In this document: in pieces, positions 21,686 to 42,806 of the stretch
How positions within the stretch are numbered: the stretch's first letter is position 1
Layout of the letters: each line of letters starts with the position of its first letter
DNA from: Oscillospiraceae bacterium
GTDB taxonomy: Bacteria > Bacillota > Clostridia > Oscillospirales > Oscillospiraceae
DNA length: 46,712 bases
NCBI GenBank assembly: GCA_017612935.1
Contig: JAGAEW010000113.1
Location: forward strand, 1 to 46,712
Reading direction: 5' to 3'
Made by a program: the position numbers and the translations under genes
Notes under the pieces: generated by a model
The model's database searches: none
What the model was told of the DNA's origin: nothing
What the model saw: only the letters and a program-made list of their open reading frames with translations

Positions 21686-22160
21686 GCTGCGGATTTGCGC
21701 GTTTCTGCGCTGGAGCGCCGCGATTCTGGCCCTGATCCTGATTGTAAATCTCTGCGGCGGGAGCGGAACCAGTCACGCGGACCCTGCCCAGGTCTTTAAG
21801 GCAGTGAGCTCCGAGCTGGACATGGACACCATGCAGGAGGCAGACAATCAGATGGTCAAGCGCCTCTACGGTCTGATACCGACCGATTATGAAGGGCTGT
21901 TTCTCTGGTATCCCACCACCAATATGGGGGCGGAGGAGCTGCTGGTGGTTAAGCTGAAGGACCCTGCTCAGGCCGAGACGGTTCGCACTGCCGTTGAAAA
22001 GCGGCTGGAGAGCCAAAAGAAAAGCTTCGACGGCTATGGCGTTGAACAGTATGAGCTCCTGAGCAATCACAGTATTCTCGATGTCCGGGGCAATTTCCTG
22101 CTTTTTGTGGTCAATCCCAAGGCGGAGCTGGCCCGGGAAGCCTTCCGGAAGGCATTGTAA
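21678..22160 (+). CDS. DUF4358-family secreted/lipoprotein-like protein
   Basis: Signal and lipobox-like LIVNLCGG, and EELLVVKLKDPAQAETVRTAVEKRLESQKKSFDGYGVEQYELL, which is typical of DUF4358. It overlaps the SGNH gene by 8 nt. Confidence 0.7.
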   Translation: MNKLRICAFLRWSAAILALILIVNLCGGSGTSHADPAQVFKAVSSELDMDTMQEADNQMVKRLYGLIPTDYEGLFLWYPTTNMGAEELLVVKLKDPAQAETVRTAVEKRLESQKKSFDGYGVEQYELLSNHSILDVRGNFLLFVVNPKAELAREAFRKAL

Positions 22161-22173
22161 GGAGGGGAGTGCC

Positions 22174-23568
22174 ATGTCATTCAGCAATCTCTTTTTCCCC
22201 TTTGTGTTTTTGCCTTGCGCTTTGCTGCTCTACGGCCTGATGCCTCAGAAGCTGAAAAATCCCATGCTGGTGCTGATCAGCCTTTGCTTTTACGCCTGGA
22301 GCCGGCCGGTCTATGTGCTGCTGCTGATTCTGAGCATTTTCTTCAACTATTTTACCGCCCGTGAAATCGAGCAGCTTAGGCCGGGCCGCCGCAGAAAGCA
22401 GGTGTTGATCTCCGGCGTTGTGCTGGATCTGGCCCTGCTGGCCTTTTTCAAATACTGGGGCTTCCTGATTTCCAGCCTCGGAAGCCTCTTTGGGGCAGAC
22501 TGGTCCGTCAGTCTGCCGCCCTCCCCGGTGGGAATTTCTTTCTTTAGCTTCTCGGTGCTGTCCTATCTCTTCGACGTCTATCGGGGCCGCGTCCGATCGG
22601 CCGGGAGCTTGCTGGACTGCGCGGTGTATGTCAGTTTTTTCCCAAAATTGATTTCCGGTCCCATTGTCAGTTGGAAGGAATTTGAGCCCCAGATCCGGAA
22701 CCATCCCATGTGTTCGGAGCTGGCCTTCGCCGGCGGACGGCGCTTCCTGACAGGTCTGGCCAAAAAGGTCCTGCTGGCAAATACCCTGGGCATGAGCTTT
22801 TATGCCATCTCAGCCAGAAACCCCGGAGAGCTGTCGATGCTGGCTGCCTGGATTGCTGCACTGAGCTACTCGCTGATGCTCTACTTCGACTTCAGCGGCT
22901 ACTCCGACATGGCAATCGGCCTGGGTCAGATCTTCGGCTTCAAAATGCCGGAAAATTTTCTCTATCCCTATGCCAGCGGCAGTATGACTGATTTCTGGCG
23001 GACCTGGCACGTTTCCCTGGGCGCCTGGTTCCGGGATTACGTCTACATCCCCTTGGGAGGCAGTCGGGCAGGGAAGTCCAAAACTGTGCGAAATCTGGCA
23101 GTGGTCTGGATGCTGACGGGCCTCTGGCACGGTGCGAATTGGACCTTTATTTTCTGGGGTATCTACCACGGAAGCCTGCTGCTGCTGGAGAAATTCACAC
23201 TGAAATCCTTTGCAGAGAAGCTCCCCAACTGGCTGCGGCACCTGCTGACGGTGCTGCTGGCGGTGATCGGCTGGGTGTTTTTCTTCTCCCCGAGCCTGGG
23301 CAGCGCCCTGGCCTTCCTGGGCTCCATGTTCTCCGGCCCAATTTCAGACAACTTCGGCCGCTACTGCCTTAAAGAGAGCTGGTCGGTGCTGCTGGTTTGC
23401 GGGGTCGGCTGCCTGCCCTATCCCCGCACCATCGCCCGCAATCTGTTCCGCAGTCGGAATTCCCTGGTAAAAGCAGTCAGTCTGGCCTTTTTCGGCGTGC
23501 TGCTCTATTTCTGTACCGCGGGGATGCTCCGGGACACCTACACATCCTTCCTCTATTTCCAGTTCTGA
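22174..23568 (+). CDS. MBOAT-family membrane O-acyltransferase (AlgI/DltB/PatA-like)
   Basis: FWRTWHVSLGAWFRDYVYIPLGGSR and the catalytic-His region TGLWHGANW. Multi-TM. AGGAGGGG RBS. I chose the start at MSFSNLFFPF. Confidence 0.92.
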   Translation: MSFSNLFFPFVFLPCALLLYGLMPQKLKNPMLVLISLCFYAWSRPVYVLLLILSIFFNYFTAREIEQLRPGRRRKQVLISGVVLDLALLAFFKYWGFLISSLGSLFGADWSVSLPPSPVGISFFSFSVLSYLFDVYRGRVRSAGSLLDCAVYVSFFPKLISGPIVSWKEFEPQIRNHPMCSELAFAGGRRFLTGLAKKVLLANTLGMSFYAISARNPGELSMLAAWIAALSYSLMLYFDFSGYSDMAIGLGQIFGFKMPENFLYPYASGSMTDFWRTWHVSLGAWFRDYVYIPLGGSRAGKSKTVRNLAVVWMLTGLWHGANWTFIFWGIYHGSLLLLEKFTLKSFAEKLPNWLRHLLTVLLAVIGWVFFFSPSLGSALAFLGSMFSGPISDNFGRYCLKESWSVLLVCGVGCLPYPRTIARNLFRSRNSLVKAVSLAFFGVLLYFCTAGMLRDTYTSFLYFQF

Positions 23569-23583
23569 CAAGGAGGCGCACCC

Positions 23584-24762
23584 ATGGAACAACAGGAAGC
23601 AAGACGTCGTTCCCGCTCGCTCTTCCGGCGAAATGACCACAGCAACGCAATTTGGGTCTGTATTCCCGCCCTCGCCTTTGTTCTGATCTGTACGGTTGTG
23701 ACGGTTGCCGGACCGGCCCGGAGCTATTCCGAATCGGAAAACCGCATGCTGGCCCAGATGCCCGCTGTGAGCCGGGACGCACTGTTCGACGGCAGTTGGT
23801 TTGCTGGTTTGGAGTCTGCCTTTGCCGATCAGTTCCCGGGCCGGGACAGCTGGATCGCAGCGAAGCTGCGCTTCGACTGCTTTTTTGGGGCCCAGCAGAG
23901 CAGTGGGGTCTATCTGGGAAAGGAGGGCTATCTGATTCAGCAGCCCTCCGATCCAAACGAAGCTGCTCTAACTGCCAATTTGGAAGCCATGAAGGCCTTC
24001 TGCAAGGACCATTTGGAGACAGCCATGTATGTGACCCTGGTTCCAAATGCGGTGACGGTGCTGGCGGACAAGCTGCCTGCCAATGCTCCGGTGCCGGATC
24101 AACGGATGCAGTTGGATGAAATCCGGAAAAAACTGCAGGGCGGCCCGGCCTTTGTGGACGTATGTGATGCCCTTCTGGCCCACCGGGAGGAGGCGCTGTA
24201 CTACCGAACGGATCACCACTGGACCAGCCTTGGCGCCCGCTATGGCTTCGAGGCAATGGCCCCCGCCCTGAAGATTCAGCCCGGGAAGGAGTATCGGATC
24301 TACACGGTGTCCGACAGCTTTGAGGGCACCCTTGCCGCCCGCAGCGGCTGCCACATTGCCCAGGATCGGGTTCAGCTCTATGTTCCTCAGCCGGAGCCGG
24401 ACTATAAGGTGGTCTACAGTGACAGCGGCGCGATTTGCGCGTCCCTTTATGACCGGACGGCGCTGGAGGCCAGGGATCACTACACAGTTTTTTTCGGCGG
24501 CAACCACCCGCGCATCGACATTACTACCACGGTGGAAAACCAGCGCCGCCTGTTGATTTTCAAGGATTCTTATGCCAACTGCTTTGTGCAGTTCCTGACC
24601 CCCTATTTTGAACAGATTATTCTGGTGGATCCCCGCTACTACTACGATGATGTCTCCATCTTGATGAAGCAGAATCAGATTACCGACGTGCTCTTCCTCT
24701 ATAACCTGGATACCTTCCTCGGTGACAGCTCCCTGTCCGATGTGCTGGGAGCAGGGGAGTAG
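23584..24762 (+). CDS. DHHW-family protein (AlgJ/AlgX/PatB-like periplasmic O-acyltransferase partner)
   Basis: N-terminal TM and the signature YYRTDHHWTSLGA. It lies directly downstream of the MBOAT gene. Confidence 0.88.
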   Translation: MEQQEARRRSRSLFRRNDHSNAIWVCIPALAFVLICTVVTVAGPARSYSESENRMLAQMPAVSRDALFDGSWFAGLESAFADQFPGRDSWIAAKLRFDCFFGAQQSSGVYLGKEGYLIQQPSDPNEAALTANLEAMKAFCKDHLETAMYVTLVPNAVTVLADKLPANAPVPDQRMQLDEIRKKLQGGPAFVDVCDALLAHREEALYYRTDHHWTSLGARYGFEAMAPALKIQPGKEYRIYTVSDSFEGTLAARSGCHIAQDRVQLYVPQPEPDYKVVYSDSGAICASLYDRTALEARDHYTVFFGGNHPRIDITTTVENQRRLLIFKDSYANCFVQFLTPYFEQIILVDPRYYYDDVSILMKQNQITDVLFLYNLDTFLGDSSLSDVLGAGE

Positions 24763-28977: not shown

Positions 28978-29889
28978 ATGGATAAGTACAGAAGCTTCAG
29001 CTTTACCAAACATTTTAAGCTTTTTGGCATAATTTCCCTCATTATGATTTCTGTGGGTCTGGTGAGTTTGGTTATGACCCTCTGCGGGGCGATGGGCGCT
29101 TTCAATTTTGATATTGATTTTGCCGGCGGCACAACCTTTGAATTCCAGATTCCCGAATCTGTGAAGGTGGACAAGGCTGTCACCGACCGTGTTGCCGAGA
29201 TTTATCAGCAGACAATTGGCGATCCGGCCTCTTCCGTCACGGCTTCCGGCACCAACGGCATTCGCCTGAAGGCTCTGATGCTGGACGATCAACAGGTGGA
29301 AAAGGTTCGCGATGCCATTGCCGGAGAGTATAATGTGGATATTGAGAAGGACTATCAGGTGGAGCGTGTTTCCGCCTCTGTCGGTCACGATCTGACCAAG
29401 GCAGCCTTTATGGCCTCCCTTGTGGCGGTGATTCTGATTCTGATTTACATTGGCTTCCGCTTCGAGTTCCGCTCCGGTCTGGCAGCTATCTGCGCGCTGG
29501 TGCATGACCTGCTGGTGATGCTCAGCATGTATGTGATTTTCCGCATTCCTTTCAACATTAACTTCATTGCCGCTGCGCTGACCATCCTCGGTTACTCCAT
29601 CAACGCAACCATTGTTGTCTTCGACCGGATTCGTGAAAACCGGAGAACCATGCGTACCGGCAACTTCGCGGTGATTGTCGATACCTCCATCTGGGACACC
29701 ATGACCCGTTCCATCAATACTACCATCACAACTCTGATTGTTATGGTTATGCTCCTGATCTTCGGTGTCAGCTCGATCCGCAACTTTGCTCTGCCGCTCT
29801 GCATCGGCATCATCTGCGGCTGCTATTCCTCCGTTTGCATCTCCGGTCCTCTGTGGAACAATTTCAACAGAGGCAGAGTGCAAAGATAA
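28978..29889 (+). CDS. secF: Protein translocase subunit SecF
   Basis: DFAGGT motif and HDLLVMLSMYVIF...SINATIVVFDRIREN. Confidence 0.93.
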   Translation: MDKYRSFSFTKHFKLFGIISLIMISVGLVSLVMTLCGAMGAFNFDIDFAGGTTFEFQIPESVKVDKAVTDRVAEIYQQTIGDPASSVTASGTNGIRLKALMLDDQQVEKVRDAIAGEYNVDIEKDYQVERVSASVGHDLTKAAFMASLVAVILILIYIGFRFEFRSGLAAICALVHDLLVMLSMYVIFRIPFNINFIAAALTILGYSINATIVVFDRIRENRRTMRTGNFAVIVDTSIWDTMTRSINTTITTLIVMVMLLIFGVSSIRNFALPLCIGIICGCYSSVCISGPLWNNFNRGRVQR

Positions 29890-29903
29890 TAACAGCTTTT
29901 TTT

Positions 29904-29940
29904 CTCCGCAGTCCTCTCAAAGGGGACTGCGGAGTTTTTT
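29904..29940 (+). terminator. Rho-independent terminator after secF
   Basis: CTCCGCAGTCC (29904-29914) pairs with GGACTGCGGAG (29924-29934), followed by TTTTTT. Confidence 0.85.
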
Positions 29941-29950
29941 GTTGCTCCAC

Positions 29951-29977
29951 ATATTTGTGGCCCGGGACACATAGGCT
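29951..29977 (+). promoter_or_regulatory. Candidate SigE-type sporulation promoter for spoIIIA (ATA-N16-CATAggcT)
   Basis: ATATT at 29951-29955 and CATAGGCT at 29970-29977. As I recall it, the B. subtilis SigE consensus is ATa-N16-18-cATAcanT, and spoIIIA is SigE-dependent in Bacillus. Confidence 0.3.
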
Positions 29978-29987
29978 GTCTCAGGTG

Positions 29988-30962
29988 ATGAAAATGGACG
30001 AGCGATACAAGGAAATTCCGACGCTCTTCCCGGAGGCATTACGCCGGGATGTGGAAACGCTGCTGGAAAATCAGGGGACTCGGGTGGAGGAGCTTCGGCT
30101 CCGGGCTGGGACTGTAGCGAGCTGGGTAACGGCGGGCAGGGAAGCGCTTGTGCCCTGCCGGGGCAGCCCACACTGCGTGACGCCCCATGACCTGGAGGAA
30201 ATTATAAGCAGGGCTTCAGATTTTTCTGCCTATGCGGTGCAGGACCAGCTTCGTGCCGGATTTCTGACGTTACGGGGAGGACATCGCCTTGGAGTCTGTG
30301 GAACGGCGGTCAGCAGGGGCACAGAGATTCAGACGATCCGGGAGTATCAGGCCTTGAATCTGCGATTGGCAGGAGAGCGGCCCGGCTGTGCTGCGGAGCT
30401 CTTCAAGAGCCTGCGTTGCTCGCCGGGATCGATTTTAATTCTCGGTCCGCCCAGGGCGGGTAAGACAACGGTTCTGAGGGACCTGGTGCGTCTTCTCTCA
30501 GATCGGGGCGGACAGAGAATTGGGCTGCTGGACGAGCGCGGAGAAATTGCAGCCTGTCGGGATGGGGTTCCTCAACTCTGCGTGGGAAACCGAACGGATG
30601 TGCTCTCCGGTTGCCCAAAGCAGCTCGGAATCGAGTTGATGCTGCGCTCCATGTCTCCGGACTGGATTGCAGTGGATGAAATCACGGCGCTGGAGGACGC
30701 GGAGAGCCTCAGCCGTACTGTCTGCTGTGGGGTCCGATTTATTGCAACCGCCCATGGGGACGGTCCGGCTGACTTGCAGCGTCGTCCGGTTTATCGAAGG
30801 CTGCTGGAGCTGGGGGCGTTTGAACGGCTGGCTGTGATGCACCCGGATCGCAGCATACATTTTGAAAGGATGAAATATGGAACAGTTAAAATGGATGGCC
30901 GCCGGGCTGATTCTTGTCTCCTCGGCATGGGTGGGGTTTCATGCGGCGCTGCGTCTTCGTAG
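29988..30962 (+). CDS. spoIIIAA: Stage III sporulation protein AA (ATPase)
   Basis: Walker A GPPRAGKTT, VDEI Walker B, and EELRLRAG at the N-terminus. It is the first gene of an 8-gene spoIIIA array. Confidence 0.92.
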   Translation: MKMDERYKEIPTLFPEALRRDVETLLENQGTRVEELRLRAGTVASWVTAGREALVPCRGSPHCVTPHDLEEIISRASDFSAYAVQDQLRAGFLTLRGGHRLGVCGTAVSRGTEIQTIREYQALNLRLAGERPGCAAELFKSLRCSPGSILILGPPRAGKTTVLRDLVRLLSDRGGQRIGLLDERGEIAACRDGVPQLCVGNRTDVLSGCPKQLGIELMLRSMSPDWIAVDEITALEDAESLSRTVCCGVRFIATAHGDGPADLQRRPVYRRLLELGAFERLAVMHPDRSIHFERMKYGTVKMDGRRADSCLLGMGGVSCGAASS

Positions 30963-31386
30963 AACCGGGGAGGAGTTGCAGGAGCTCCGCGGCGCTTTGG
31001 ACCGTATGACCGGAGAAATTCGGTATGCCGGAACCCCCTTTGCCCCCCTTTGTAAGAGGCTTGCAGAGAGCAGTAGCGGCAGTGTGCGTCATTTTTTTCA
31101 GGGACTTGCGGCCGGAACGGAACATGGCGCCGGCTGTGGCCTGACTCGCCGGATCGCGCAGGAGGTGGGGCTGACACTGCCAAATTCGGCGCTCTCTGTT
31201 TTGGAGCGGCTGTTTGACGATTTCGGAAACAGGGACCTGGAAGCACAGCTCAGTCAGCTTTGCCTGGCGCAGGAGGAACTGTCCCGGCTGGAGACCGAGC
31301 TGCGCGTTCTGATGCCGGGGAAGTGCCGCAGCTATGAGGTTTTGGGAATTGTTACAGGTCTTTCTCTGTTGATTTTAGTGCTGTGA
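30877..31386 (+). CDS. spoIIIAB: Stage III sporulation protein AB
   Basis: 169 aa with N- and C-terminal TM segments and the right position in the operon. It overlaps the spoIIIAA 3' end by 86 nt. Confidence 0.85.
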   Translation: MEQLKWMAAGLILVSSAWVGFHAALRLRRTGEELQELRGALDRMTGEIRYAGTPFAPLCKRLAESSSGSVRHFFQGLAAGTEHGAGCGLTRRIAQEVGLTLPNSALSVLERLFDDFGNRDLEAQLSQLCLAQEELSRLETELRVLMPGKCRSYEVLGIVTGLSLLILVL

Positions 31387-31580
31387 TGGATATTGATTTA
31401 ATTTTTAAAATTGCGGCAATGGGAATCATTGTGTCGATTCTCAATCAGGTGTTGATTCGCTCCGGACGGGAGGAGCAGGCAACCATGACAACCCTTGCCG
31501 GGCTTGTAGTGGTGCTGATGCTGGTGGTGGAGAAAATCGCGGATCTGTTTGCACTGGTCAAGGAGTTGTTTCACTTTTGA
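31386..31580 (+). CDS. spoIIIAC: Stage III sporulation protein AC
   Basis: A 64-aa two-TM protein, MDIDLIFKIAAMGIIVSILNQVLIRSGREEQA. Confidence 0.9.
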   Translation: MDIDLIFKIAAMGIIVSILNQVLIRSGREEQATMTTLAGLVVVLMLVVEKIADLFALVKELFHF

Positions 31581-31966
31581 TTGACGATCTACTCAAGCTT
31601 TCGGCAATGGCGGTGATATCCTGCCTGCTGATTTTGACGGTCAAAAAGCAGGCTCCCGAGCTGGGGCTGATTCTGAGCCTCTGCGCCTGTGCCCTCGGAG
31701 CAGGCTTTTTGCTGGAGACCCTCAGACCGGTGCTGTTGCTGGCCGGGAGCCTGGCGGAAAAAGCGGGGCTGGAGCCGGAACTGCGTGCACCGCTGTGGAA
31801 GTGTCTCGGTTTGGGTTTGCTGACAGAGCTCTCCGCCGGTCTCTGCGCCGATGCGGGGGAAAGCGCTCTGGCAAAGCTGGTGGAGCTGGGCGGCGGGATT
31901 CTCTGTCTGGCTGTGAGTTTGCCCCTGCTGCAGGCGGTGCTGGCCCTGATTGAGGGACTGCTGTGA
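31577..31966 (+). CDS. spoIIIAD: Stage III sporulation protein AD
   Basis: 129 aa, multi-TM, TTG start coupled to the spoIIIAC stop. ...KKQAPELGLILSLCACAL. Confidence 0.88.
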   Translation: MIDDLLKLSAMAVISCLLILTVKKQAPELGLILSLCACALGAGFLLETLRPVLLLAGSLAEKAGLEPELRAPLWKCLGLGLLTELSAGLCADAGESALAKLVELGGGILCLAVSLPLLQAVLALIEGLL

Positions 31967-33051
31967 GAGGACTGATGCGGATATGCGCCCTGATTTTTCT
32001 GCTTCTGCCGATTTTGCATGGTACCGTCCGGGCAGTGGACCCTGCCGCAGAACTCAGAGCGGAGCTTGATCCGGAGGCGGGGCTGTCTGCAGAGCTCCTG
32101 GACAGGATCGGAAGCTATGACGGTGCAATCGAAGGCTTTGGGGACAAGCTGCTGCGTCTGGTTGGCAGTACGCTGGGACGGGTCAAAGAGCTTCATTTGC
32201 AGGAGGCGCTGGCTTGCGTCAGTATGATTCTTGCAGCCGCCCTTCTGTGTTCCCTGTTTGAGAACAGCACACACAGCGCCGGTCTGGCCCCGCTGGTGGG
32301 GGCGCTGACCATTACCGCTGCCTGTACCAGATCGGTGGATTCCATGATTTCCCTGGGAGCCGGAGTGATCCGGGAGCTGTGTCACTATTTCGGCCTGCTG
32401 CTGCCCACCATGTCCACGCTTCTGGCAGCCTCCGGTAATTTCTCAGCCGTGGCGGTTTCAAGCTTTGGAATAACGCTGCTGGAGGGACTGCTGGCCCTGG
32501 TCTCGGGCGTGATGGTGCCGTTGCTCTATGTGCTGCCGGCCCTGGCTGTGGCGGAGTATGGGCTGGGAATGAAGAATCTGGGACAACTCAGCGCCTTTGT
32601 AAAGTGGCTCTTGGTGACGATGGTGAAGGGGATTCTCTATGGATATTCTGGAATTCTCGCCTTTACAGGGCTTGTCTCCGGCAGTGTGGATGCCCAACGG
32701 CTGCGCTCTGTGCGTTCCGTGATTGCCGGAATGGTTCCGGTGGTGGGAAACATTGTTTCCGACGCCTCCGGCTCCTTGTTAAGCGCGGCGGCAAGCCTGA
32801 AAACAGCCGTAGGACTTTACGGAATGCTGGCAGTGTTCGGCCTGTGCCTGGGGCCTTTTTTCCAAATTGGGATTCAATACCTGGCTCTGAAACTGGCGGC
32901 AGTCCTTTGCGGCCTGTTCGGCCAGGGCAGCCAGAGCCCCTTGATCGAAAGACTGTCTCAGGTCATGGGGTTGATGCTGGCACTGACGGGAATTGCCTGC
33001 CTGCTGACCCTGATGATTCTTGTACTCTGTATTCGGACGGTGAACCTATGA
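31963..33051 (+). CDS. spoIIIAE: Stage III sporulation protein AE
   Basis: 362 aa with a signal peptide and a polytopic C-terminal part (VIAGMVPVVGNIVSDASGSLL). Confidence 0.9.
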   Translation: MRGLMRICALIFLLLPILHGTVRAVDPAAELRAELDPEAGLSAELLDRIGSYDGAIEGFGDKLLRLVGSTLGRVKELHLQEALACVSMILAAALLCSLFENSTHSAGLAPLVGALTITAACTRSVDSMISLGAGVIRELCHYFGLLLPTMSTLLAASGNFSAVAVSSFGITLLEGLLALVSGVMVPLLYVLPALAVAEYGLGMKNLGQLSAFVKWLLVTMVKGILYGYSGILAFTGLVSGSVDAQRLRSVRSVIAGMVPVVGNIVSDASGSLLSAAASLKTAVGLYGMLAVFGLCLGPFFQIGIQYLALKLAAVLCGLFGQGSQSPLIERLSQVMGLMLALTGIACLLTLMILVLCIRTVNL

Positions 33052-33524
33052 CGGCGATAAAGGCCTATCTTTTGCGGCTGGTCTGCTGCGGCTTTTTTGT
33101 CAGCCTGGCCACGTCCTTGCTGCGGGGCAAACGAAGCGGCAGGATTGTTGCGCTTTGCGGCGGCTGTCTGATGATACTGACGGCCATCCGGCCCCTGATG
33201 CGGGTGAATCTGTCAGCCCTGCCGGATTTGGCGACGGGGCTGACACAGGCGGAGCGCCGGACACTGGCAAGAGAGAAGAACGACGCCCTCTTGCAGAGGC
33301 TTGTGGAGGACCAAACCGTGTCGTGGTTGGAGGCACAGGCGGGTAAATTGGGGATGGTGGCGTCCTTCGCAGTGCAGGCCGTCGAGACGGCGGAGGGACT
33401 TTGGATCCCGCAACGGGTACAAATTACCGGGAACTGGACGGAGCAGCAGAGACAGCTGTTGTCGAAGCAAATGGAACGGGAACTGTCGCTGCCGCCGGAG
33501 CAGCAGGAATGGGAGGACGGATGA
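33048..33524 (+). CDS. spoIIIAF: Stage III sporulation protein AF
   Basis: MTAIKAYLLRLVCCGFFVSLATSLL, with two N-terminal TM segments. ATGA coupling on both sides. Confidence 0.85.
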   Translation: MTAIKAYLLRLVCCGFFVSLATSLLRGKRSGRIVALCGGCLMILTAIRPLMRVNLSALPDLATGLTQAERRTLAREKNDALLQRLVEDQTVSWLEAQAGKLGMVASFAVQAVETAEGLWIPQRVQITGNWTEQQRQLLSKQMERELSLPPEQQEWEDG

Positions 33525-34072
33525 AGCTGAGATGGGATCTGCCGGGAAAGATTCCGGTGTTTCTGGATCGCTATAAGCTTCCGATTCTGACGATTCTGAT
33601 CGGCTTGACCTTACTGCTTTGGTCTCCGGGGGAAAAGGCAGAGGGGAGTGAGTTCCCGGTGCAGACCCAGCCGGAGCAAAGCCAGCCCCAGGATGAGGGA
33701 GAACGCTATTGTGCCAGGACGGAGCAGGAGCTGGAGACGCTGCTGGCCCAGATCGATGGGGCGGGGCGGGTTCGGGTTATGCTGACCCTGCGGACCGGAC
33801 CCGCCGCGAATTATCAGAAGGACAGCAAGCGCACAAATTCGGGGGAGGGAGAGCGGCACAGTGAATCGCTGGAGGAAAAAACAGTGATTCTGAGCCGTGC
33901 AAGCGCATACAATGAACCAGCCATCGTAAGCACGGCGTATCCGGAGTTTCAGGGAGCCCTGATCGTCGCAGAGGGCGGTGCGGATGCAAAGATCCGTTAT
34001 CAACTCGCTGCTGCCGTATCGGCTCTGCTGGGACTTGGCGCTGACCAAATTACGGTCGTAAAAATGAAGTAA
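33521..34072 (+). CDS. spoIIIAG: Stage III sporulation protein AG
   Basis: N-terminal TM and a C-terminal ring-building motif region (VRVMLTL...PEFQGALIVAEGGADAKIRYQLAAAVSALLGLGADQITV). Confidence 0.9.
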   Translation: MKLRWDLPGKIPVFLDRYKLPILTILIGLTLLLWSPGEKAEGSEFPVQTQPEQSQPQDEGERYCARTEQELETLLAQIDGAGRVRVMLTLRTGPAANYQKDSKRTNSGEGERHSESLEEKTVILSRASAYNEPAIVSTAYPEFQGALIVAEGGADAKIRYQLAAAVSALLGLGADQITVVKMK

Positions 34073-34085
34073 CGGGGGATTGAAC

Positions 34086-34658
34086 ATGAAAACATGGAAA
34101 CGGAATGCCATTGTGGCAGCAGTCTTGGTTTTTGTCTGCGGCGGGATCTATCTAAACTGGCGTTATGAGGACAGCAGACCCTTCGACCTGGTTTCGACCT
34201 TGGACCAGACGAAGCTGATGGACGACGCGGCCCTGGTGATTCGAAACGATGAAACAGAACTGGAGCAGGTGGCGGCACAGCAGGGAGAGCAAAAGGATGG
34301 AGAAGATGCCGAGGCGGTCTTTGCCCGGATGCGGATGAGCCGCCAGCAGAGCCGGGACAGCGCCGTGCACACCCTGCAGGAGACAATTTCCTATGCCGGT
34401 GAAGATGAGGACGTCAGCGCCAGCACCCTAAAGCTGGAATCCATTGTCAACATGGCTCTGTCCGAAGCGTCCATAGAGAGTTTGGTGGTTTCCAAGGGCT
34501 ATGCGGAGTGTGTGGCCTACATGACAGAGGAGGGGATTGACCTGGCAGTGGCCGCCCAGGGCCTCTCTGAAAGCGATGTGGCCGTTCTGAGCGACATTGT
34601 GCTGTCCCAAACCGAATATGATCTTTCGCAAATTCGAATTATTGAGGTAAATTCCTGA
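34086..34658 (+). CDS. spoIIIAH: Stage III sporulation protein AH
   Basis: MKTWKRNAIVAAVLVFVCGGIYLNW TM anchor and a C-terminal YscJ/FliF-like region. It is the last gene of the operon. Confidence 0.85.
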   Translation: MKTWKRNAIVAAVLVFVCGGIYLNWRYEDSRPFDLVSTLDQTKLMDDAALVIRNDETELEQVAAQQGEQKDGEDAEAVFARMRMSRQQSRDSAVHTLQETISYAGEDEDVSASTLKLESIVNMALSEASIESLVVSKGYAECVAYMTEEGIDLAVAAQGLSESDVAVLSDIVLSQTEYDLSQIRIIEVNS

Positions 34659-34727
34659 AAATTACGGTTGTTTTTTTTGGGATTTGTGGTACAATGAATG
34701 AAAGCGTTTACAAAGGAGGATCATACC

Positions 34728-35060
34728 ATGGCAGAGAATAAAGATTACATGACCAGAGAATTGGAAGACGGAAGTCTGAATATCAGCGAGGATGTGCTCG
34801 TTACCATTGCCCTTGCTGCCGCCAATGATGTGGAGGGCGTGGTCAGCCTGAAAAACGACCGCAAGGGCGTCCGGGTAACGCTGAACGAGGATGACGTGGA
34901 GTTGGACTGCGCTCTGGTGGTTCTCTATGGCCATTCTGTAGTGGAGATTGCGAGGAATGTTCAGAACGCCGTGACCAACGCCGTTGAATCCATGACCGGC
35001 CTGAAGGTTGCCCGCGTGGATGTGAATGTGTGTGGCATTTCTATGGGGAAAGCCGGATGA
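34728..35060 (+). CDS. Asp23/Gls24-family alkaline shock protein
   Basis: ISEDVLVTIALAAANDVEGVV... and RVDVNVCGI. AAGGAGG RBS. Same position as B. subtilis yqhY, upstream of nusB. Confidence 0.88.
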   Translation: MAENKDYMTRELEDGSLNISEDVLVTIALAAANDVEGVVSLKNDRKGVRVTLNEDDVELDCALVVLYGHSVVEIARNVQNAVTNAVESMTGLKVARVDVNVCGISMGKAG

Positions 35061-35527
35061 ACAAAGGGCCGCGTATGACGAGATCGGCCGCCAGAGAGAT
35101 CGCCGTCCACCTGATTTATGCCGTACAGTGTACGGGGGAATCGGTGGAGACTGTGCTGTGCGACCGGTTTGAAGAGACGTATTATGCCCTCCTTTCCGCC
35201 GAAAATGAGGTCTACGCCGAAAAGCCCAACGGGAAGCAGCGCGAATATATCAGCTCTGTGGTGCAGGGCGTCTGTGACCGGCAACAGGAGCTGGATGGGT
35301 ATCTTGCAAAGTATTCCGTCGCTTGGAACGTCAGTCGGATTTCCCGGCTGGCCCGGGCAGTTATGGAGCTTGCCATGTATGAGGCCCTCTATGTGGAGGA
35401 TGTACCCATGAACGTCGCCATCAATGAGGCGGTCAAGCTGACACAAAAATATGAGGAGCAGGAGACGGTTGCCTTTGTCAACGGCATTCTTGGCAGCTTC
35501 TCCCGTGAACGGAAGACAGAAGCATGA
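35057..35527 (+). CDS. nusB: Transcription antitermination factor NusB
   Basis: SAAREIAVHLIY...RISRLARAVMELAMYE...PMNVAINEAVKLTQKY...FVNGILG. Confidence 0.92.
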   Translation: MNKGPRMTRSAAREIAVHLIYAVQCTGESVETVLCDRFEETYYALLSAENEVYAEKPNGKQREYISSVVQGVCDRQQELDGYLAKYSVAWNVSRISRLARAVMELAMYEALYVEDVPMNVAINEAVKLTQKYEEQETVAFVNGILGSFSRERKTEA

Positions 35528-36462
35528 TCACCATCGGATTTGATACCAGCAATTATACGACCTCTGTTGCCGCCTTCGACGGCGAAAGGGGAGAAAATGT
35601 CTCCCGGCTGTTGCCGGTAAAGACCGGAGAATTGGGCCTTCGCCAATCGGAGGCCCTGTTTTCTCATGTGAAGCGCCTGCCGGAGCTGTCCGACAGGCTC
35701 TTTGTGCATTTGCCGACCGAGGCGCTGGCGGCTGTAGGCGTTAGTACCAGACCCAGATCCGTGGAGGGCTCCTATATGCCCTGCTTTTTGGCGGGGGAAT
35801 CTCAGGCACGGGTGCTGGCTGCGGCGCTGCACCTGCCCATCTACTCCTTTTCTCACCAGCAGGGGCACATTGCCGCTGTTCTGTGGTCGGCGGGACGATT
35901 GGATTTACTGGGCTCCGAGTTTTTTGCCTGGCACCTGTCCGGCGGCACGACGGAGCTGCTGCGGGTTCGTTCCAGCGCCGACGGAGAGATTGACTGTGAA
36001 AAGATCGGTGGTACGACGGATATTTCTGCCGGGCAGCTGATTGATCGCACCGGACAGCTTCTGGGCTTCGATTTTCCTGCGGGCAAGGCTCTGGACATCG
36101 CTGCCGCCGGGAGCGACGGGGGAGATTTTTTTCGTGTCCGGGTCCAGGACTGTGAATTTTCGCTCTCCGGCGTTCAAAATCAGGTGGAGGCTTTCCGGCG
36201 GAAGGGAGCCGATGCTGCCCAAACCGCTCGGTTTACTTTGCTCACTGTGGCGGAAGCAGTTGGAAAGGCAACGGCTAATGCCCGAAAGCGCGCTCCGCTT
36301 CCGGTGGTTTTTTCCGGTGGCGTTGCCTCCAACTCCATGCTGCGCGCCAGGATAGGGGAAGCCATTTTCGGCGCCCCGCAGTATTCTACCGACAACGCGA
36401 TGGGCATTGCCGTCCTGACCCGTCTCAGGCATCTGGCAAGCGCCGGAGATCAATGCCCATGA
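35524..36462 (+). CDS. Divergent Kae1/TsaD (peptidase M22/glycoprotease, ASKHA-fold) family protein
   Basis: MITIGFDTSNYTTSVAAF N-terminus, an HxxGH-type motif SHQQGHIAAV, and C-terminal FSGGVASNSMLR. Confidence 0.7.
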   Translation: MITIGFDTSNYTTSVAAFDGERGENVSRLLPVKTGELGLRQSEALFSHVKRLPELSDRLFVHLPTEALAAVGVSTRPRSVEGSYMPCFLAGESQARVLAAALHLPIYSFSHQQGHIAAVLWSAGRLDLLGSEFFAWHLSGGTTELLRVRSSADGEIDCEKIGGTTDISAGQLIDRTGQLLGFDFPAGKALDIAAAGSDGGDFFRVRVQDCEFSLSGVQNQVEAFRRKGADAAQTARFTLLTVAEAVGKATANARKRAPLPVVFSGGVASNSMLRARIGEAIFGAPQYSTDNAMGIAVLTRLRHLASAGDQCP

Positions 36463-37918: not shown

Positions 37919-38777
37919 AGAATGGAGCGCAGTAAACCGGCGTTTTGAAACCCGGCTGGCGCAGCTCTATCAGGAGGCTGCATCCGAGCCCCAGCAACGT
38001 CTGTTTGAGGCGATGAATTACAGCCTGCTGGCGGGAGGAAAGCGGTTGCGGCCTCTGCTGGTCTACGCCTTTTGCGAGGCCTGCGGCGGCTGTGCCGAGG
38101 AGGCGGACCCGGCGGCGCTGGCCGTTGAGATGCTTCACACCTACAGCCTGATCCACGACGACCTTCCCGCCATGGACAACGACGATTATCGCCGGGGCCG
38201 GCTGACCAGCCATAAGGTTTACGGTGAGGCCCTGGCAATTTTAGCGGGAGACGCACTGTTGACGGATGCCTTTCGGCTTCTGACGACAGGCATCCTGCCT
38301 GCTGGGAAGGCTGTCGCCTGCGTGGCAGTTCTGGCACAGAATGCCGGCCCCTACGGAATGGTTGGGGGGCAGGTGCTGGATATGGCCTCAGAGGAACGGA
38401 CCCTGAGTGAGGAGGAGGTGCGGAATATTCAGACCCGTAAAACCGGCTGCTTGATTCGCGCTGCCTGTGAAATGGGAGCAATTTGCGCCGGGGCGGATGC
38501 CGGGCAGCGAGAAGCCGCCCGGCGCTATGCCGATGGGATCGGCCTTGCGTTTCAGATTCGGGACGATGTGCTGGATGTGACAGGAGATGCCGCCAAGCTT
38601 GGCAAGGCCGTGGGGGTTGATGCCGAGAAGAATACCTTTGTCCGGCTTTACGGATTGGAGCGCTGCGCCGGAATGATCCACAGTGAAACTGCTGCAGCAG
38701 TGAATGCGCTTTCCTGTTTTCAAAAGCCAGATCTGCTGACGGATCTGGCCTGGTTTTTGGCGGAACGGGATCATTAA
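37902..38777 (+). CDS. ispA: Farnesyl diphosphate synthase (polyprenyl synthetase)
   Basis: GGKRLRP, FARM LIHDDLPAMDNDDYRRG, and SARM FQIRDDVLD. The start is uncertain (ATG at 37902 or 37872). Confidence 0.92.
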   Translation: MRSLNEEWSAVNRRFETRLAQLYQEAASEPQQRLFEAMNYSLLAGGKRLRPLLVYAFCEACGGCAEEADPAALAVEMLHTYSLIHDDLPAMDNDDYRRGRLTSHKVYGEALAILAGDALLTDAFRLLTTGILPAGKAVACVAVLAQNAGPYGMVGGQVLDMASEERTLSEEEVRNIQTRKTGCLIRAACEMGAICAGADAGQREAARRYADGIGLAFQIRDDVLDVTGDAAKLGKAVGVDAEKNTFVRLYGLERCAGMIHSETAAAVNALSCFQKPDLLTDLAWFLAERDH

Positions 38778-38864
38778 TCCGCTTTTTGTCGAAAGTATAC
38801 ATGAAGCAGATTAAACTATTCAGCTTTTTCGTCAAAAAAAATTGAATATTTTGTCAATTTTATC

Positions 38865-38893
38865 TTGTATATTTATTTAGAATATGTTATAAT
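38865..38893 (+). promoter_or_regulatory. Extended -10 SigA promoter (TTGTAT-N17-TGtTATAAT) in an AT-rich block upstream of the large ncRNA
   Basis: TTGTAT at 38865-38870, TG at 38885-38886, and TATAAT at 38888-38893. About 100 nt of A/T-rich sequence lies upstream. Confidence 0.65.
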
Positions 38894-38898
38894 CAAAA

Positions 38899-39510
38899 TG
38901 GTGGTGCTGTATCCTAGTCGGAACCGTCGATTACCAGGAAGGGCCTAAAAATCCTTTGAAGGGCATATCGATGAAGTCCCTGGTGCTTGCTTGTTTCGCC
39001 CAGATTCGGGTGGGTGCTGGGGGTTAAGGTTTCCGGGCGGCTGTCAATGGCATGACTGTTACGACCCGGTTACCGTGGAGACCTGCTTCTGTGCGGCCGC
39101 CGCACGTTTTTGTGGACAAGGACGGCGTACGGCGCAGGAGATGAACCTGCATTGCGGTGCGGTTAGCGTGCTGTGTGCAGTGTAGCCTGCCTTGCGTGGG
39201 TATGATGGGGAAAGAGGAGCCATGCGTACTTACCTGTGGCCACAGGCAAAGGCGATATTCTCTGGAAACCTTACCTGCAAAAGAGGCTAAGAGTCGACGG
39301 CCTTCGGGGTGGAAAACACCTAGGCAGTCTGAAAGGGATATGCTGCGGATTGCAGTGCGGACTCAGTGGCAATCGGGTAATGTGTACTGGCGACGGCACA
39401 AAGCAGACATGAAAAGGGAACTGCCCGTTCGGCGACGACGGGTTGTTTGCGGGGAAATCCAACCCGACCTAAGCCGCAAGATTTACGCAGCGTATTTCCA
39501 CCACAGTTGA
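38899..39510 (+). ncRNA. ole: Large structured noncoding RNA, most likely OLE (ornate, large, extremophilic) RNA. Boundaries are approximate.
   Basis: There is a 755-nt gap between ispA and the next CDS. About 610 nt lie downstream of a strong promoter. Only Cys/Arg-rich ORFs without an RBS are present. I can see many short helices and a terminal GTGGTG/CACCAC pairing. The xseAB-ispA-[RNA]-4TM protein-dxs-tlyA-nadK-argR-recN synteny is characteristic of OLE loci. Confidence 0.75.
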
Positions 39511-39532
39511 TAAATATTCAGAGGAACAAACG

Positions 39533-40153
39533 TTGAAATCCACACAAGACACATCAGACAAACAAGGCAGAAGACATAGGAAAAACGGAGCAAGGAACAA
39601 GTCTGCCTCCAAGGCCCGCTGGCTGATTACGATCTTTTTTTTGGCACTGACGATTTCCGCTGTTTTTTCTTTTTTTTCCCAACAACTGCTGGGCCGGGCC
39701 AGCTTATCCGGCGCATTTCTGATCCTTCTGGCAATTATAGCCATTGGCATCCTCTTTGATTTGCTGGGAGTTGCGGTTACGGCCGCTGAAGAAAAGCCCT
39801 TTCACTCCATGGCTTCCCGGAAGGTTCCGGGCGGCGTGGAAGGAATCTGGCTGCTTCGCAATGCCGGAAAGGTTTCTTCAGTCTGCAATGATGTTGTGGG
39901 CGACATCTGCGGCATTATCTCCGGTACGGCAGCGGCCGTGGTTGCGATTGAGACCTGGAACAGTACCCATGCCTTTTCTCAGCAGATGGTTCAGCTCTTG
40001 TTGTCCGCCCTTGTGGCAGCCCTGACAATCTTGGGCAAGGCATTTTGCAAGCAGATCGCGCTGGATAATTCCACAGCGATTGTTCAAAGCGCAGCACGGC
40101 TGATCTGGCGGTGCAAGCGACTATTTTCAAGGAAGTCAAAGAGAAAAAAATGA
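39533..40153 (+). CDS. oapA: OLE-associated membrane protein OapA-like (small 4-TM protein)
   Basis: 206 aa with a basic N-terminal tail (KQGRRHRKNGARNKSASKAR) and four hydrophobic segments. There is a conserved-looking acidic motif CNDVVGDICGIISG. It lies immediately 3' of the ncRNA and is ATGA-coupled to dxs. TTG start. Confidence 0.7.
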   Translation: MKSTQDTSDKQGRRHRKNGARNKSASKARWLITIFFLALTISAVFSFFSQQLLGRASLSGAFLILLAIIAIGILFDLLGVAVTAAEEKPFHSMASRKVPGGVEGIWLLRNAGKVSSVCNDVVGDICGIISGTAAAVVAIETWNSTHAFSQQMVQLLLSALVAALTILGKAFCKQIALDNSTAIVQSAARLIWRCKRLFSRKSKRKK

Positions 40154-41988
40154 ACGATCCATTTCAGTTTCCGAACTCCAGAGAACTGCGAAGTATGGAT
40201 GAAGCAGAGCTGTCGGCTCTTTGCAAACGGATTCGAAAATTTTTGATTGAAAACGTATCTAAAACCGGTGGACATTTGGCGTCCAACCTTGGTGTGGTGG
40301 AACTGATTGTCGCCATTCACCGCGTCTTTGATACTGAAACGGACCGGCTGGTGTTCGACGTGGGACATCAATCCTATGTGCATAAAATACTGACCGGTCG
40401 GGCAGACCGTTTTCCGACCCTGCGAAAGCTTGACGGTTTGGCAGGCTTTCCAAAGCCCGGCGAGAGCGTTCACGACGCATTTGTTGCCGGGCATGCATCC
40501 AACTCCGTTTCCGTTGCCCTCGGGATGGCCCGGGCGCGGACTTTGACGGGAAAGCAATACAATGTAATCGCTTTGATGGGCGACGGGGCCCTGACGGGAG
40601 GCCTTGCCTATGAGGGCCTCAACGATGCCGGCTCCAGCGGAGAGCCGCTGATTGTCATTCTCAATGACAACGGAATGTCCATTACTCCGAACGTAGGGGG
40701 AATGGCGAAGCATTTATCCAATATTCGCACCAAACCCAGCTACTTTGCGTGTAAAAAGGTCTGGAATGAGCTCACAAAAACCACGTCTGTGGGCCGCAGC
40801 GTTTACCGCGGTGTTCACCGCATAAAAGAGAATTTGAAAAAGCGGCTGATCAGCGCCAATACATTCAATGACATGGGCTTTGAGTATTACGGTCCGGTGG
40901 ACGGGCACGACATCAAAAAGCTCGTCTGGTTGCTGCAAATGGCGAGGGACCTGAAAAAACCCGTGATTCTCCATGTGACCACGCAAAAGGGCCGGGGATA
41001 TCCTCCTGCGGAACGGAATCCTGACTTATACCACGGCGTCGGAGCCTTTGATCCCACGGTAGGGCTGAAACCCAGTCAAGCTGTTACCTTCTCCGATACC
41101 TTCGGAAAGACCCTTTCGACCCTTGCTGCCCGCAATCCCCGCGTCTGCGCCATTACTGCCGCCATGCAGAGTGGCACGGGGCTGGATAACTTTGCAAAGT
41201 CCTATCCGGATCGGTTTTTTGACGTGGGCATTGCGGAAGGACACGCTGTGGCTATGGCCGGCGGTCTGGCAAAGCAGGGAATGTTGCCGGTTCTTGCGAT
41301 TTATTCCACCTTTTTCCAACGCTCCTTTGATATGTTGATTCACGATATTGCACTTCTGAATTTACATGTGGTGTTTGCAGTGGATCGGGCCGGGCTCGTG
41401 GGAGCGGACGGCGAAACCCATCACGGTGTCTTCGACGTTGGCTTTCTGCGGCAGGTTCCCGGAATGCAGATTCTCTGCCCTGCCAATCAGGCCGAGCTGG
41501 CGAAAATGCTGGAGCAAGCGCTGTTTTCCATGACCGGCCCCGTGGCGGTGCGTTATCCCAGGGGCGGCGATGAGGCCTATCGTGAGCTTTCCGCTCAGTC
41601 AATCCTCCGGGCGGGAACTGCAATTACCCTTTGCGCTTACGGCACGACGGTAAATTCTATTTTGGAGGCCGCCGAGCTGCTGCATCAGCGGGGGATTGAG
41701 GCTGAGGTGGTCAAGCTCAATCAAATTCGGCCGATTGACCCGGATTGGAAGGCCTCCGCCCTTAGAACGGGAGCCTTCCTGATGGTAGAGGAATGCCTGC
41801 AGCACGGCGGCATTTATGATGAAATTGCTTCCGATCCCGCGCTGCAGACCCTTCGACACCGGGGGATGGATCTCGGCATAGGCTTCGTGTCCCACGGAAG
41901 CTGTTCCGAGCTGCAAAAGCGGGCAGGGATTGACGCGCAAAGTGTCTGTGAAGCAGCCGTCGCGCTTTTGAAGGGAGAAACTACATGA
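40150..41988 (+). CDS. dxs: 1-deoxy-D-xylulose-5-phosphate synthase
   Basis: GGHLASNLGVVEL, VFDVGHQSYVHKILTGR, and TPP motif GDGALTGGLAYEGLN. Confidence 0.96.
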   Translation: MNDPFQFPNSRELRSMDEAELSALCKRIRKFLIENVSKTGGHLASNLGVVELIVAIHRVFDTETDRLVFDVGHQSYVHKILTGRADRFPTLRKLDGLAGFPKPGESVHDAFVAGHASNSVSVALGMARARTLTGKQYNVIALMGDGALTGGLAYEGLNDAGSSGEPLIVILNDNGMSITPNVGGMAKHLSNIRTKPSYFACKKVWNELTKTTSVGRSVYRGVHRIKENLKKRLISANTFNDMGFEYYGPVDGHDIKKLVWLLQMARDLKKPVILHVTTQKGRGYPPAERNPDLYHGVGAFDPTVGLKPSQAVTFSDTFGKTLSTLAARNPRVCAITAAMQSGTGLDNFAKSYPDRFFDVGIAEGHAVAMAGGLAKQGMLPVLAIYSTFFQRSFDMLIHDIALLNLHVVFAVDRAGLVGADGETHHGVFDVGFLRQVPGMQILCPANQAELAKMLEQALFSMTGPVAVRYPRGGDEAYRELSAQSILRAGTAITLCAYGTTVNSILEAAELLHQRGIEAEVVKLNQIRPIDPDWKASALRTGAFLMVEECLQHGGIYDEIASDPALQTLRHRGMDLGIGFVSHGSCSELQKRAGIDAQSVCEAAVALLKGETT

Positions 41989-42806
41989 AGCAAAAGGAAC
42001 GGCTGGATGTTTTTCTGACCGATCAGGGGTATACGGAATCCAGATCCAAGGCACAGGCATTGATTATGGCCGGCTTGGTCTATGTAGACGGACGAAAAGT
42101 CGATAAGCCCGGGTTTACGGTGGAGCTTAGTCAGAACGTGGAGCTGCGCGGAACCGCCTGCCCCTATGTGAGCCGCGGTGGGCTGAAGCTGGAAAAGGCC
42201 CTCCGGGATTTCAGCGTGGATGTGACAGATTTTGTCTGTTCTGATTCCGGCGCTTCCACGGGCGGCTTCACTGACTGCCTGCTGCAGCAGGGAGCGAGGA
42301 AGGTTTTTGCCATCGACGTTGGCTACGGGCAGCTTGCCTGGAAAATCCGCAGTGACCCCAGGGTAGTCTGCATGGAGCGTACCAATGTCCGCAGTCTAAG
42401 CCCGGAAATGCTCGGGGAGCTACTGGATCTGTCTGTGATTGATGTGTCCTTTATCTCTTTGAGGCTGGTCCTTCCCGTCATCTATTCGCTGCTCAAGCCC
42501 GAAGGGCAGGTCCTCTGCTTGATCAAACCGCAATTTGAGGCCGGCAAAGAAAAAGTCGGCAAGAAAGGGGTCGTTCGGGATCCTGCCGTACATACGGAGG
42601 TTCTGGAAGCATTTATGAACAATGCCAGCCAAATTGGTTTTACCTTAAAGAATCTGACATTTTCTCCGGTGAAAGGTCCGGAGGGCAATATTGAATTTCT
42701 TGGCCATCTGGCCAAAGCACCGGGAGAATCCCTGAAGCCGGATGCGGCGGAGCTGGTTCGTCTGGCCCACCAAACTCTGAACGGCGGAAAGGAGAAAGCG
42801 GAATGA
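41985..42806 (+). CDS. tlyA: TlyA-family rRNA (cytidine-2'-O)-methyltransferase
   Basis: N-terminal S4 domain (RLDVFLTDQGYTESRSKAQALI), YVSRGGLKLEKAL, and SAM motif DSGASTGGFTDCLLQQGA. Confidence 0.92.
   Translation: MKQKERLDVFLTDQGYTESRSKAQALIMAGLVYVDGRKVDKPGFTVELSQNVELRGTACPYVSRGGLKLEKALRDFSVDVTDFVCSDSGASTGGFTDCLLQQGARKVFAIDVGYGQLAWKIRSDPRVVCMERTNVRSLSPEMLGELLDLSVIDVSFISLRLVLPVIYSLLKPEGQVLCLIKPQFEAGKEKVGKKGVVRDPAVHTEVLEAFMNNASQIGFTLKNLTFSPVKGPEGNIEFLGHLAKAPGESLKPDAAELVRLAHQTLNGGKEKAE

Follow-up and report, generated by a model that had tools for sequence, protein, structure and literature searches.

A canonical, full-length OLE RNA gene between ispA and oapA-dxs in an Oscillospiraceae genome

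Introduction

Which element occupies the 755 nucleotides (nt) between the end of ispA (38777) and the next credible coding sequence (39533) on contig JAGAEW010000113.1 (assembly GCA_017612935.1) of an Oscillospiraceae bacterium? We analyzed the complete stretch of 46,712 nt (hereafter the window), for which a preliminary description made from the letters alone had proposed a probable OLE (ornate, large, extremophilic) RNA at this position. Few bacterial noncoding RNAs of unsettled biochemical function are as large as the OLE RNAs. Recent structures suggest that the latter may span the membrane, which makes this an important class, and published GTDB-wide surveys reportedly count about 2,800 species with OLE. 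Our analysis leaves us highly confident that the gap is a full-length canonical ole gene with its own promoter and with oapA directly downstream, in a spore-forming Clostridia host. The locus thus belongs to an already known class in its standard setting and holds no new biology; the preliminary description was right in its OLE call and also in speaking of a described class rather than a new one.

Results

Identity of the intergenic element

The length of the gap given in the preliminary description is borne out by the list of open reading frames (ORFs) and by Pfam, the ispA product matching polyprenyl_synt with 201.7 bits. Likewise, the AT-rich block followed by a return to high GC is found again as a GC content of 0.20 over 38800-38899 and of 0.51-0.62 along the element. 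A scan with the OLE covariance model and a covariation analysis had been named there as checks, and both were run. The whole window was scanned against Rfam 15 at gathering thresholds, resulting in a match to OLE (RF01071) at 38885-39517 (+) with 433.7 bits (E 3.7e-124, gathering score 50) that spans positions 1-616 of the 616 model positions and is untruncated. No Rfam family besides OLE was reported for the window at these thresholds. Within the ispA-oapA gap, the Rfam models of cis-regulatory leaders and riboswitches gave no match, and no tRNA genes were found in the window. Measured from P1 to P1, its outermost helix, the RNA covers 38899-39503 and thus 605 nt, to which the Rfam match adds a few flanking bases. 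This agrees with the length of about 610 nt previously noted as typical of OLE and with a family length of about 600 nt.

In order to place the RNA within its family, a species-representative genome collection was scanned with the conserved OLE 16-mer GGGCANATCGATGAAG, yielding at least 120 loci. The 16-mer proved too unspecific, as about 50 among the matches listed carry OLE according to nhmmer with the window element. The OLE homologues among the matches listed derive from metagenome-assembled genomes (MAGs) of Oscillospiraceae and other Clostridia, and from Bacillaceae, Alicyclobacillus, Syntrophomonadaceae, Thermincola, and Acetobacterium. All 17 rescanned loci are full-length Rfam OLE RNAs scoring 408-530 bits, a range in which the window lies at the lower end of normal. 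The window and 45 full-length homologues from other Bacillota were aligned with MAFFT without regard to structure (alignment A1). At 206 of the 209 columns conserved to at least 90% in the 45 other OLE RNAs, the window matches the family.

Could the gap instead encode one or several small Cys/Arg-rich proteins, the RNA-family match being incidental? ORFs of 63-117 codons do exist (38991-39185, 39157-39510, and 39271-39462 on the minus strand), yet a Pfam search of these three gave zero matches, and gene callers left the gap without a gene in six independent metagenome assemblies that cover this locus. In the aligned frames, premature stops interrupt the ORFs in 42-44 of 45 homologous loci, and the length modulo 3 is random, being shared by about one-third of the 45 homologues. 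Furthermore, a strain variant carries a 1-nt indel within ORF 38991-39185, and substitutions preserve base pairs rather than codons. The coding reading is effectively refuted, and the earlier judgement that these ORFs are noncoding holds.

Fold and covariation

The Rfam consensus structure laid on the window comprises 154 pairs, of which 141 are canonical. Together with the long-range helices P1, P2, and P3, the RNA is composed of the following elements.

38899-38905, plus strand: 5' strand of P1, paired with 39497-39503; six pairs and a U-U mismatch (38905/39497); from RNAalifold
38906-38917, plus strand: 5' strand of P2, pairing 38906-38909 with 39325-39328 and 38913-38917 with 39320-39324; from RNAalifold
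38919-38930, plus strand: 5' strand of P3.1/P3, pairing 38919-38922 with 39303-39306 (4 bp) and 38924-38930 with 39294-39300 (7 bp)
38938-38957, plus strand: P4 hairpin with the A-rich loop CCUAAAAA (38944-38951); 6 of 6 pairs, 98% paired in the family
38967-38976, plus strand: J4a/5, AUCGAUGAAG, bulged strand of a kink-turn (k-turn); invariant block in A1
38977-39023, plus strand: P5/P5.1 with loop GCCCA (38998-39002); 18 of 20 pairs canonical, 95% paired, 13 double-changed
39028-39074, plus strand: P6/P6.1 with loop AUGGCA (39047-39052); helices 4 and 5
39082-39138, plus strand: variable stem P7, with 14 nt inserted compared with the Rfam model and a terminator-like local hairpin at 39090-39106
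39147-39180, plus strand: P8 hairpin; 13 of 13 pairs, 87% paired in the family
39189-39287, plus strand: long stem P9-P9.3 with the palindromic loop UGGCCA (39237-39242); basal helices 90-97% paired
39309-39336, plus strand: two small hairpins after P3, GUG-GAAAA-CAC at 39309-39319 and a second at 39329-39336; 99% and 93% paired
39337-39496, plus strand: 3' domain P12-P15; all helices 86-99.6% paired, with many double changes
39380-39401, plus strand: P13 with GNRA loop GCGA (39390-39393)
39402-39451, plus strand: P14/P14.1 with loop GCGA (39432-39435)

Evaluated on A1, the Rfam structure plus P1 gave 86.0% standard pairs, compared with 41.6-44.5% when the 3' partners were slid by 1-3 columns. 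Changes on both sides were seen at 134 of 161 pairs, and the covariation score was 0.507 versus 0.12-0.13 in the slid versions; none of 500 shuffles reached any observed measure. The OLE fold is thereby supported on an alignment that is independent of the covariance model. In addition, RNAalifold on A1 independently recovered P1, P2, and P3, which are absent from the Rfam consensus structure and contained in published OLE models (PMC12265935). P3 covaries strongly at alignment columns 54-58/508-512 in RNAalifold, its pairing in the window being read from the sequence. Lower values were obtained for the apex of P9, which is variable in length (42-52% paired), and for the top of P7 (76%) in the MAFFT alignment. 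The same apical parts pair at 11 of 14 and 15 of 16 positions in the window itself, and we treat the low family values as an alignment artefact of a gap-rich region, not as evidence against the stems.

The preliminary description had called the element highly structured. As a statement about the single sequence this could not be upheld, since a minimum free energy (MFE) z-score of -1.37 is not significant and thermodynamics alone therefore fails to show structure. As a statement about the family it stands, the structure being established at the sequence level by the covariance-model match together with covariation.

Closely related copies add to this picture. The exact OapA protein of the window is present on 13 metagenome contigs, and L124, the most diverged copy examined, is 98.6% identical with 12 substitutions within the RNA. 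All seven strain-level substitutions at paired sites preserve pairing, and in L124 the changes A38898G and C39504T convert an A/C juxtaposition at the outer edge of P1 into G-U. In L124 and L126, the T-run in the P7 loop at 39107 differs by 1 nt from the window. On the family level, two of the three deviating conserved columns are the two sides of one P2 pair, 38908/39326, which is U-A in the window and A-U in all 45 others. This unique flip is a clean compensatory change supporting P2, a predicted helix outside the Rfam consensus structure.

Seven short helices had earlier been paired by eye, and the family alignment sorts them. CCGGG/CCCGG (39033/39065) coincides with P6 at 4 of 5 pairs, CCCGT/ACGGG (39424/39438) with P14.1 at 4 of 5, and GGTG/CACC (39308/39317) with the accepted structure at 3 of 4. 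Three others were rejected because they compete with covarying helices: the CCUGGU of ACCAGG/CCTGGT (38933/38979) is taken by P5, which has covariation support; GTGCGG/CCGCAC (39091/39100) is a local hairpin at the P7 apex that conflicts with a covarying helix and is left unused when P7 is folded; and the CCGCA of TTGCGG/CCGCAA (39447/39474) pairs instead with 39356-39360. An end-closing helix placed at 38901-38906/39499-39504 turned out to be real, namely P1, in a register that is 3 nt off. The latter is 64.9% paired in the family, no better than shuffles, and reaches 88% when slid by -3; it was rejected for the family, though six pairs form in this single sequence. The conserved register 38899-38905/39497-39503 is 91% paired, and 6 of its 7 pairs are double-changed.

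Functional sites of the RNA

Every RNA element with a role assigned in the literature is in the window RNA: the three bridge loops (L4, L5/L6, and L9.3), the k-turn strands, the GNRA-capped P13 and P14.1, and P3/P3.1. The P4 loop forms dimer bridge B1 in cryo-electron microscopy (cryo-EM) structures (PMC12286853, PMC12265935), and the L9.3 palindrome serves as a kissing-loop dimer bridge (PMC12286853). The predicted dimer-bridge loops are kept in the window as L4 CCUAAAAA, L5 GCCCA, L6 AUGGCA, and L9.3 UGGCCA. A k-turn bound by OapC has been described at the base of P5 (PMC9723947, PMC12286853). Opposite J4a/5, the candidate partner strands UUAAGG (39024-39029) and CCGUGGAGAC (39073-39082) are conserved, so that the predicted k-turn strands for OapC are present. 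The OapB site consists of a GNRA tetraloop on P13 and a single-nucleotide bulge (PMC7936274). As candidate OapB elements, the window RNA has the GNRA loops of P13 and P14.1, whereas its P13 bulge departs from this description by comprising 2 nt. P3 is proposed to lie beside OapA and to span the membrane, with a typical length of 12 bp (PMC12265935); in the window, P3/P3.1 amounts to 11 bp plus an internal loop and is thus near this value.

Promoter and transcription unit

The region around the RNA holds the following expression signals and genes.

38865-38870, plus strand: putative -35 box TTGTAT, weak, matching TTGACA at 3 of 6 positions
38885-38893, plus strand: extended -10 element TGtTATAAT, ending 5 nt before P1; predicted transcription start about 38899-38901
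39520-39525, plus strand: ribosome-binding site AGAGGA of oapA, located 7 nt ahead of its TTG start codon
39533-40153, plus strand: oapA, encoding a 206-aa membrane protein; starts 29 nt after the RNA
40150-41988, plus strand: dxs, its ATG overlapping the oapA stop; same transcription unit

The arrangement TTGTAT-N17-TATAAT with TG at -15/-14 (38865-38893) had been described as a near-consensus extended -10 promoter, of which the -10 and the TG stand and the -35 does not. We call the promoter because of the extended -10 and its conserved position: in 34 of 46 OLE loci, a -10 box with at least five of six matches, often TG-extended, has its end 3-20 nt upstream of P1, and in several more it lies slightly further upstream. 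At the -35 place, L018, the closest relative among the matches listed, shares CTTGTATATT with the window. A simple sigma-70 scan reported no promoter at 38865-38893, since the -35 matches only at 3 of 6 positions. In Halalkalibacterium (Bacillus) halodurans, OLE has its own promoter and 5' rapid amplification of cDNA ends stops at the start of P1 (PMC3413148), a placement that the window promoter matches.

No terminator-like site was found between OLE and oapA, and none above chance from OLE as far as recN. At the junctions oapA/dxs (ATGA, 40150-40153), dxs/tlyA (41985-41988), and tlyA/nadK (42803-42806), the stop codon of the first gene and the start codon of the second form a 4-nt overlap. 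Because of the missing terminators and the overlapping genes, the OLE promoter is predicted to also read into oapA-dxs-tlyA-nadK-argR-recN, a layout that points to a single long operon transcribed in part from this promoter. Probably, the RNA arises at the 5' end of a long transcript, also by read-through from ispA, and is then trimmed; polycistronic transcription has been reported for H. halodurans (PMC12265935). Upstream, a 10-bp hairpin followed by CTGGTTTTTG lies within the last ispA codons (38726-38759, about 18 nt before the stop). Read-through towards the OLE promoter might be attenuated there; such sites number at chance level.

OapA

The small protein with four transmembrane (TM) helices that had been noticed downstream as the oapA setting is an OapA orthologue by position, helices, DxxxD motif, and tails. 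We found 5882 OapA homologues, which are mostly unnamed, with few annotated as CNNM. Of 45 OLE loci, 41 encode a homologue directly downstream, and two of the remaining four are contig ends; 40 of the 41 OLE-adjacent homologues carry D[VI][VIL]GD. Four TM helices, DxxxD, and basic clusters are the published hallmarks of OapA (PMC11332333, PMC12265935). In the window protein, the hydrophobic segments span residues 31-49, 62-80, 121-139, and 153-171, where the AlphaFold2 (AF2) model places long helices. DVVGD is located at 120-124, with D120 and D124 invariant in 43 homologues. Both tails are basic, with 10 K/R in residues 1-29 and 11 K/R in 173-206, and by the positive-inside rule we infer them to be cytoplasmic.

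A sequence search of the Protein Data Bank with an OapA profile returned chance-level matches only. Likeness to CNNM/CorB has also been published for the H. halodurans OapA (PMC11332333). The spacing between both genes varies among loci: in L018, oapA starts about 900 nt after OLE versus about 30 nt in the window, while L025 and L112 have no oapA homologue in the 1.5 kb downstream of OLE, dxs following directly.

Genomic neighbourhood and host

The flanking gene order was confirmed as initially given. The published OLE setting, nusB-xseAB-ispA-[OLE]-oapA-dxs-tlyA-nadK-argR-recN, to which it had been assigned, recurs in 50 other loci among the matches listed. In these, oapA was counted 43 times, ispA 31, dxs and tlyA 29 each, xseA 26, xseB 20, nusB and argR 17 each, and nadK and recN 16 each, counts that are limited mainly by the available flank. 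All of these neighbours keep the gene order of the window and share the strand of OLE.

The window contains the sporulation genes yabP, yqfD, and spoIIIAA-AH together with an Asp23-family gene (333-1924, 29835-35060), and we therefore assign the host to the spore-forming Bacillota. OLE correlates with sporulation proteins in published work, and the window fits this. The nearest OapA/OLE relatives among the matches listed are Oscillospiraceae and Clostridia MAGs, several of them from the ruminant gut. The host is probably a spore-forming, Oscillospiraceae-like anaerobe of the gut or rumen.

Other genes of the window are era, recO, mutS2, uvrC, tex, and secDF. Between nusB and xseA, 35524-36462 encodes a divergent TsaD/Kae1-family protein (Pfam TsaD 71.7 bits; NCBIfam TsaD equivalog 94 bits versus a cutoff of 296), which is probably other than the housekeeping TsaD. 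Two proteins carry SLH domains, one of them fused to an M14 carboxypeptidase; they are encoded at 14365-16104 (+) and 18560-20227 (-), the latter alone among the genes of the window being clearly on the minus strand. At 20843-24762, genes for GDSL hydrolase, DUF4358, MBOAT, and DHHW proteins cluster in what looks like a cell-envelope O-acylation module.

Discussion

Proposed mechanism and alternative explanations

A sigma-A promoter with an extended -10 would direct transcription to begin with the first bases of P1, and 3' processing would release the stable OLE RNA from a longer transcript. Two OLE RNAs would then dimerise, a step taken from the literature on other species. OapA dimers would anchor the RNAs at the membrane via their basic cytoplasmic tails, beside P3, and OapB, OapC, and bS21 would complete the particle, which may aid adaptation to short-chain alcohols, cold, excess Mg2+, and poor carbon sources (PMC12265935, PMC12286853, PMC9723947, PMC7936274, PMC11332333, PMC3413148). 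As the least certain step, held with clearly less than even confidence, we tentatively propose that the RNA may regulate the CNNM/CorB-like OapA in divalent-cation homeostasis rather than catalyse a reaction. We favour regulation because OapA appears to be related to Mg2+ transporters and because OLE and one of these transporters, the OapA relative MpfA, are anticorrelated (PMC11332333).

A catalytic core activity of the RNA, in place of OapA regulation, appears unlikely. The Breaker laboratory is said to have long speculated that OLE is a ribozyme. Its size, its about 25% near-invariant nucleotides, and its ornate fold do resemble large ribozymes (PMC11332333, PMC12265935), and the 206 of 209 conserved columns kept in the window include conserved loops without an assigned partner (PMC7936274). 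In about 20 years, however, no reaction has been found, and neither splicing nor cleavage products were observed (PMC3413148); dimer bridges and protein sites now explain many of the conserved nucleotides (PMC12286853), and the anticorrelation with MpfA points to a transport or regulatory role instead (PMC11332333). 

Another view takes OLE as acting mainly in cis, as a very long structured 5' leader that, in the manner of a riboswitch or attenuator, controls oapA-dxs and the genes behind. The layout is compatible with it: RNA and oapA start codon are separated by only 29 nt without a terminator, oapA and dxs overlap in ATGA with no above-chance terminator to recN, 41 of 45 loci have oapA after OLE, and P7 itself holds a terminator-like hairpin, GTGCGGCCGCCGCAC followed by a T run (39090-39112). 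This hairpin lies in a variable region at the P7 apex, excludes the covarying P7 base, occurs at chance frequency, and is absent from the MFE fold. The H. halodurans OLE, moreover, exists as one abundant and very stable RNA, and ole-oap at a distant locus rescues the phenotypes of this organism (PMC3413148); together with proteins, the RNA makes up a particle localised at the membrane (PMC12265935). Conservation extends over 600 nt and takes in dimer interfaces and protein sites, which a leader could do without, and L025 and L112 carry OLE without an adjacent oapA. We consider a role mainly in cis highly improbable. Also improbable is a combined role, in which OLE, besides its part in a trans-acting ribonucleoprotein, is an obligatory 5' leader of oapA-dxs-tlyA-nadK-argR-recN and sets the expression of 1-deoxy-D-xylulose 5-phosphate (DXP) synthase. 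If true, the folding, processing, or membrane capture of the leader would couple the sensing of membrane stress to isoprenoid synthesis, and this switch could include the P7 hairpin with its length-polymorphic U-run (39090-39112).

Returning to a full-length OLE RNA that serves an OapA-anchored particle, nothing weighs against the OLE identification, and only details carry caveats. The -35 box is weak (3 of 6), and no sequence signal defining the 3' end of the RNA was found. In single-sequence folding, 3 of 20 shuffles fold as well as the element (z-score -1.37). The bulge of P13 comprises 2 nt (U39385 A39386) versus 1 nt in 44 of 46 family members, which is not a sequencing error because near-identical metagenome copies share it. 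A search of the window for oapB and oapC found neither. The CNNM relation of OapA is faint: its best Pfam match is CNNM (PF01595) with E 0.029 and 14.5 bits versus a threshold of 28.4, and the top four Foldseek matches are all to MtCorB (7M1T/7M1U, an archaeal CNNM) with E 0.03-0.18, from an AF2 model with a pLDDT (predicted local distance difference test) of 67.6. To our knowledge, the biochemical function of OLE is unsettled in every species, and the last mechanistic step is offered as a hypothesis.

For annotation, the analysis explains the 755-nt gap and allows a hypothetical 206-aa membrane protein to be named OapA. For the structure model, it provides clear covariation support for P1, P2, and P3 though these lie outside the Rfam consensus structure. 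With respect to host range, it adds one more OLE in non-extremophile spore formers of the gut or rumen.

Comparison with known systems

Other large structured noncoding RNAs, namely ROOL, GOLLD, raiA, and HEARO, likewise have a function that is unknown or partly known, and ROOL and GOLLD form homo-oligomers (PMC12286853). In contrast to OLE, they have no Rfam match in the window and are not known to be anchored to the membrane by a dedicated neighbouring protein. On the protein side, CNNM/CorB/MpfA (PF01595; 7M1T, 7M1U) is the best yet weak match of the window OapA in both sequence and fold; OapA differs by four instead of three TM helices, by DxxxD, and by the lack of CBS and CorC domains.

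The closest correspondence is to the H. halodurans OLE with its proteins OapA, OapB, and OapC, which shares the P1-P15 architecture, the P1-proximal promoter, and oapA immediately downstream, as well as the neighbourhood, the GNRA-capped P13, the k-turn strands, and the P3 helix (PMC3413148, PMC7936274, PMC9723947). That species is an alkaliphilic Bacillus, whereas the window host is of the anaerobic, spore-forming gut or rumen Clostridia type, and the window RNA differs in a P13 bulge of 2 nt instead of 1, a P7 extended by 14 nt, and the flipped A-U pair in P2. The OLE RNAs of C. acetobutylicum and C. botulinum, seen as dimers by cryo-EM, have the same 5' domain P3-P9.3 and share with the window the bridge loops L4 CUAAAAAU, L5 GCCCA, L6 AUGGCA, and L9.3 UGGCCA (PMC12286853, PMC12265935). 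The window RNA is longer than these (605 versus 577 nt), mainly in P7 and P9. OLE variants 1 and 2 of the gut lineages TANB77 and RF39 likewise come from uncultured gut Bacillota (PMC11332333). Unlike the window RNA, they have either shortened P7-P9 and lost the OapB site or lack P7 and P8. Because P7, P8, a long P9, and the GNRA loop of P13 are all present, the window RNA belongs to the full-length type.

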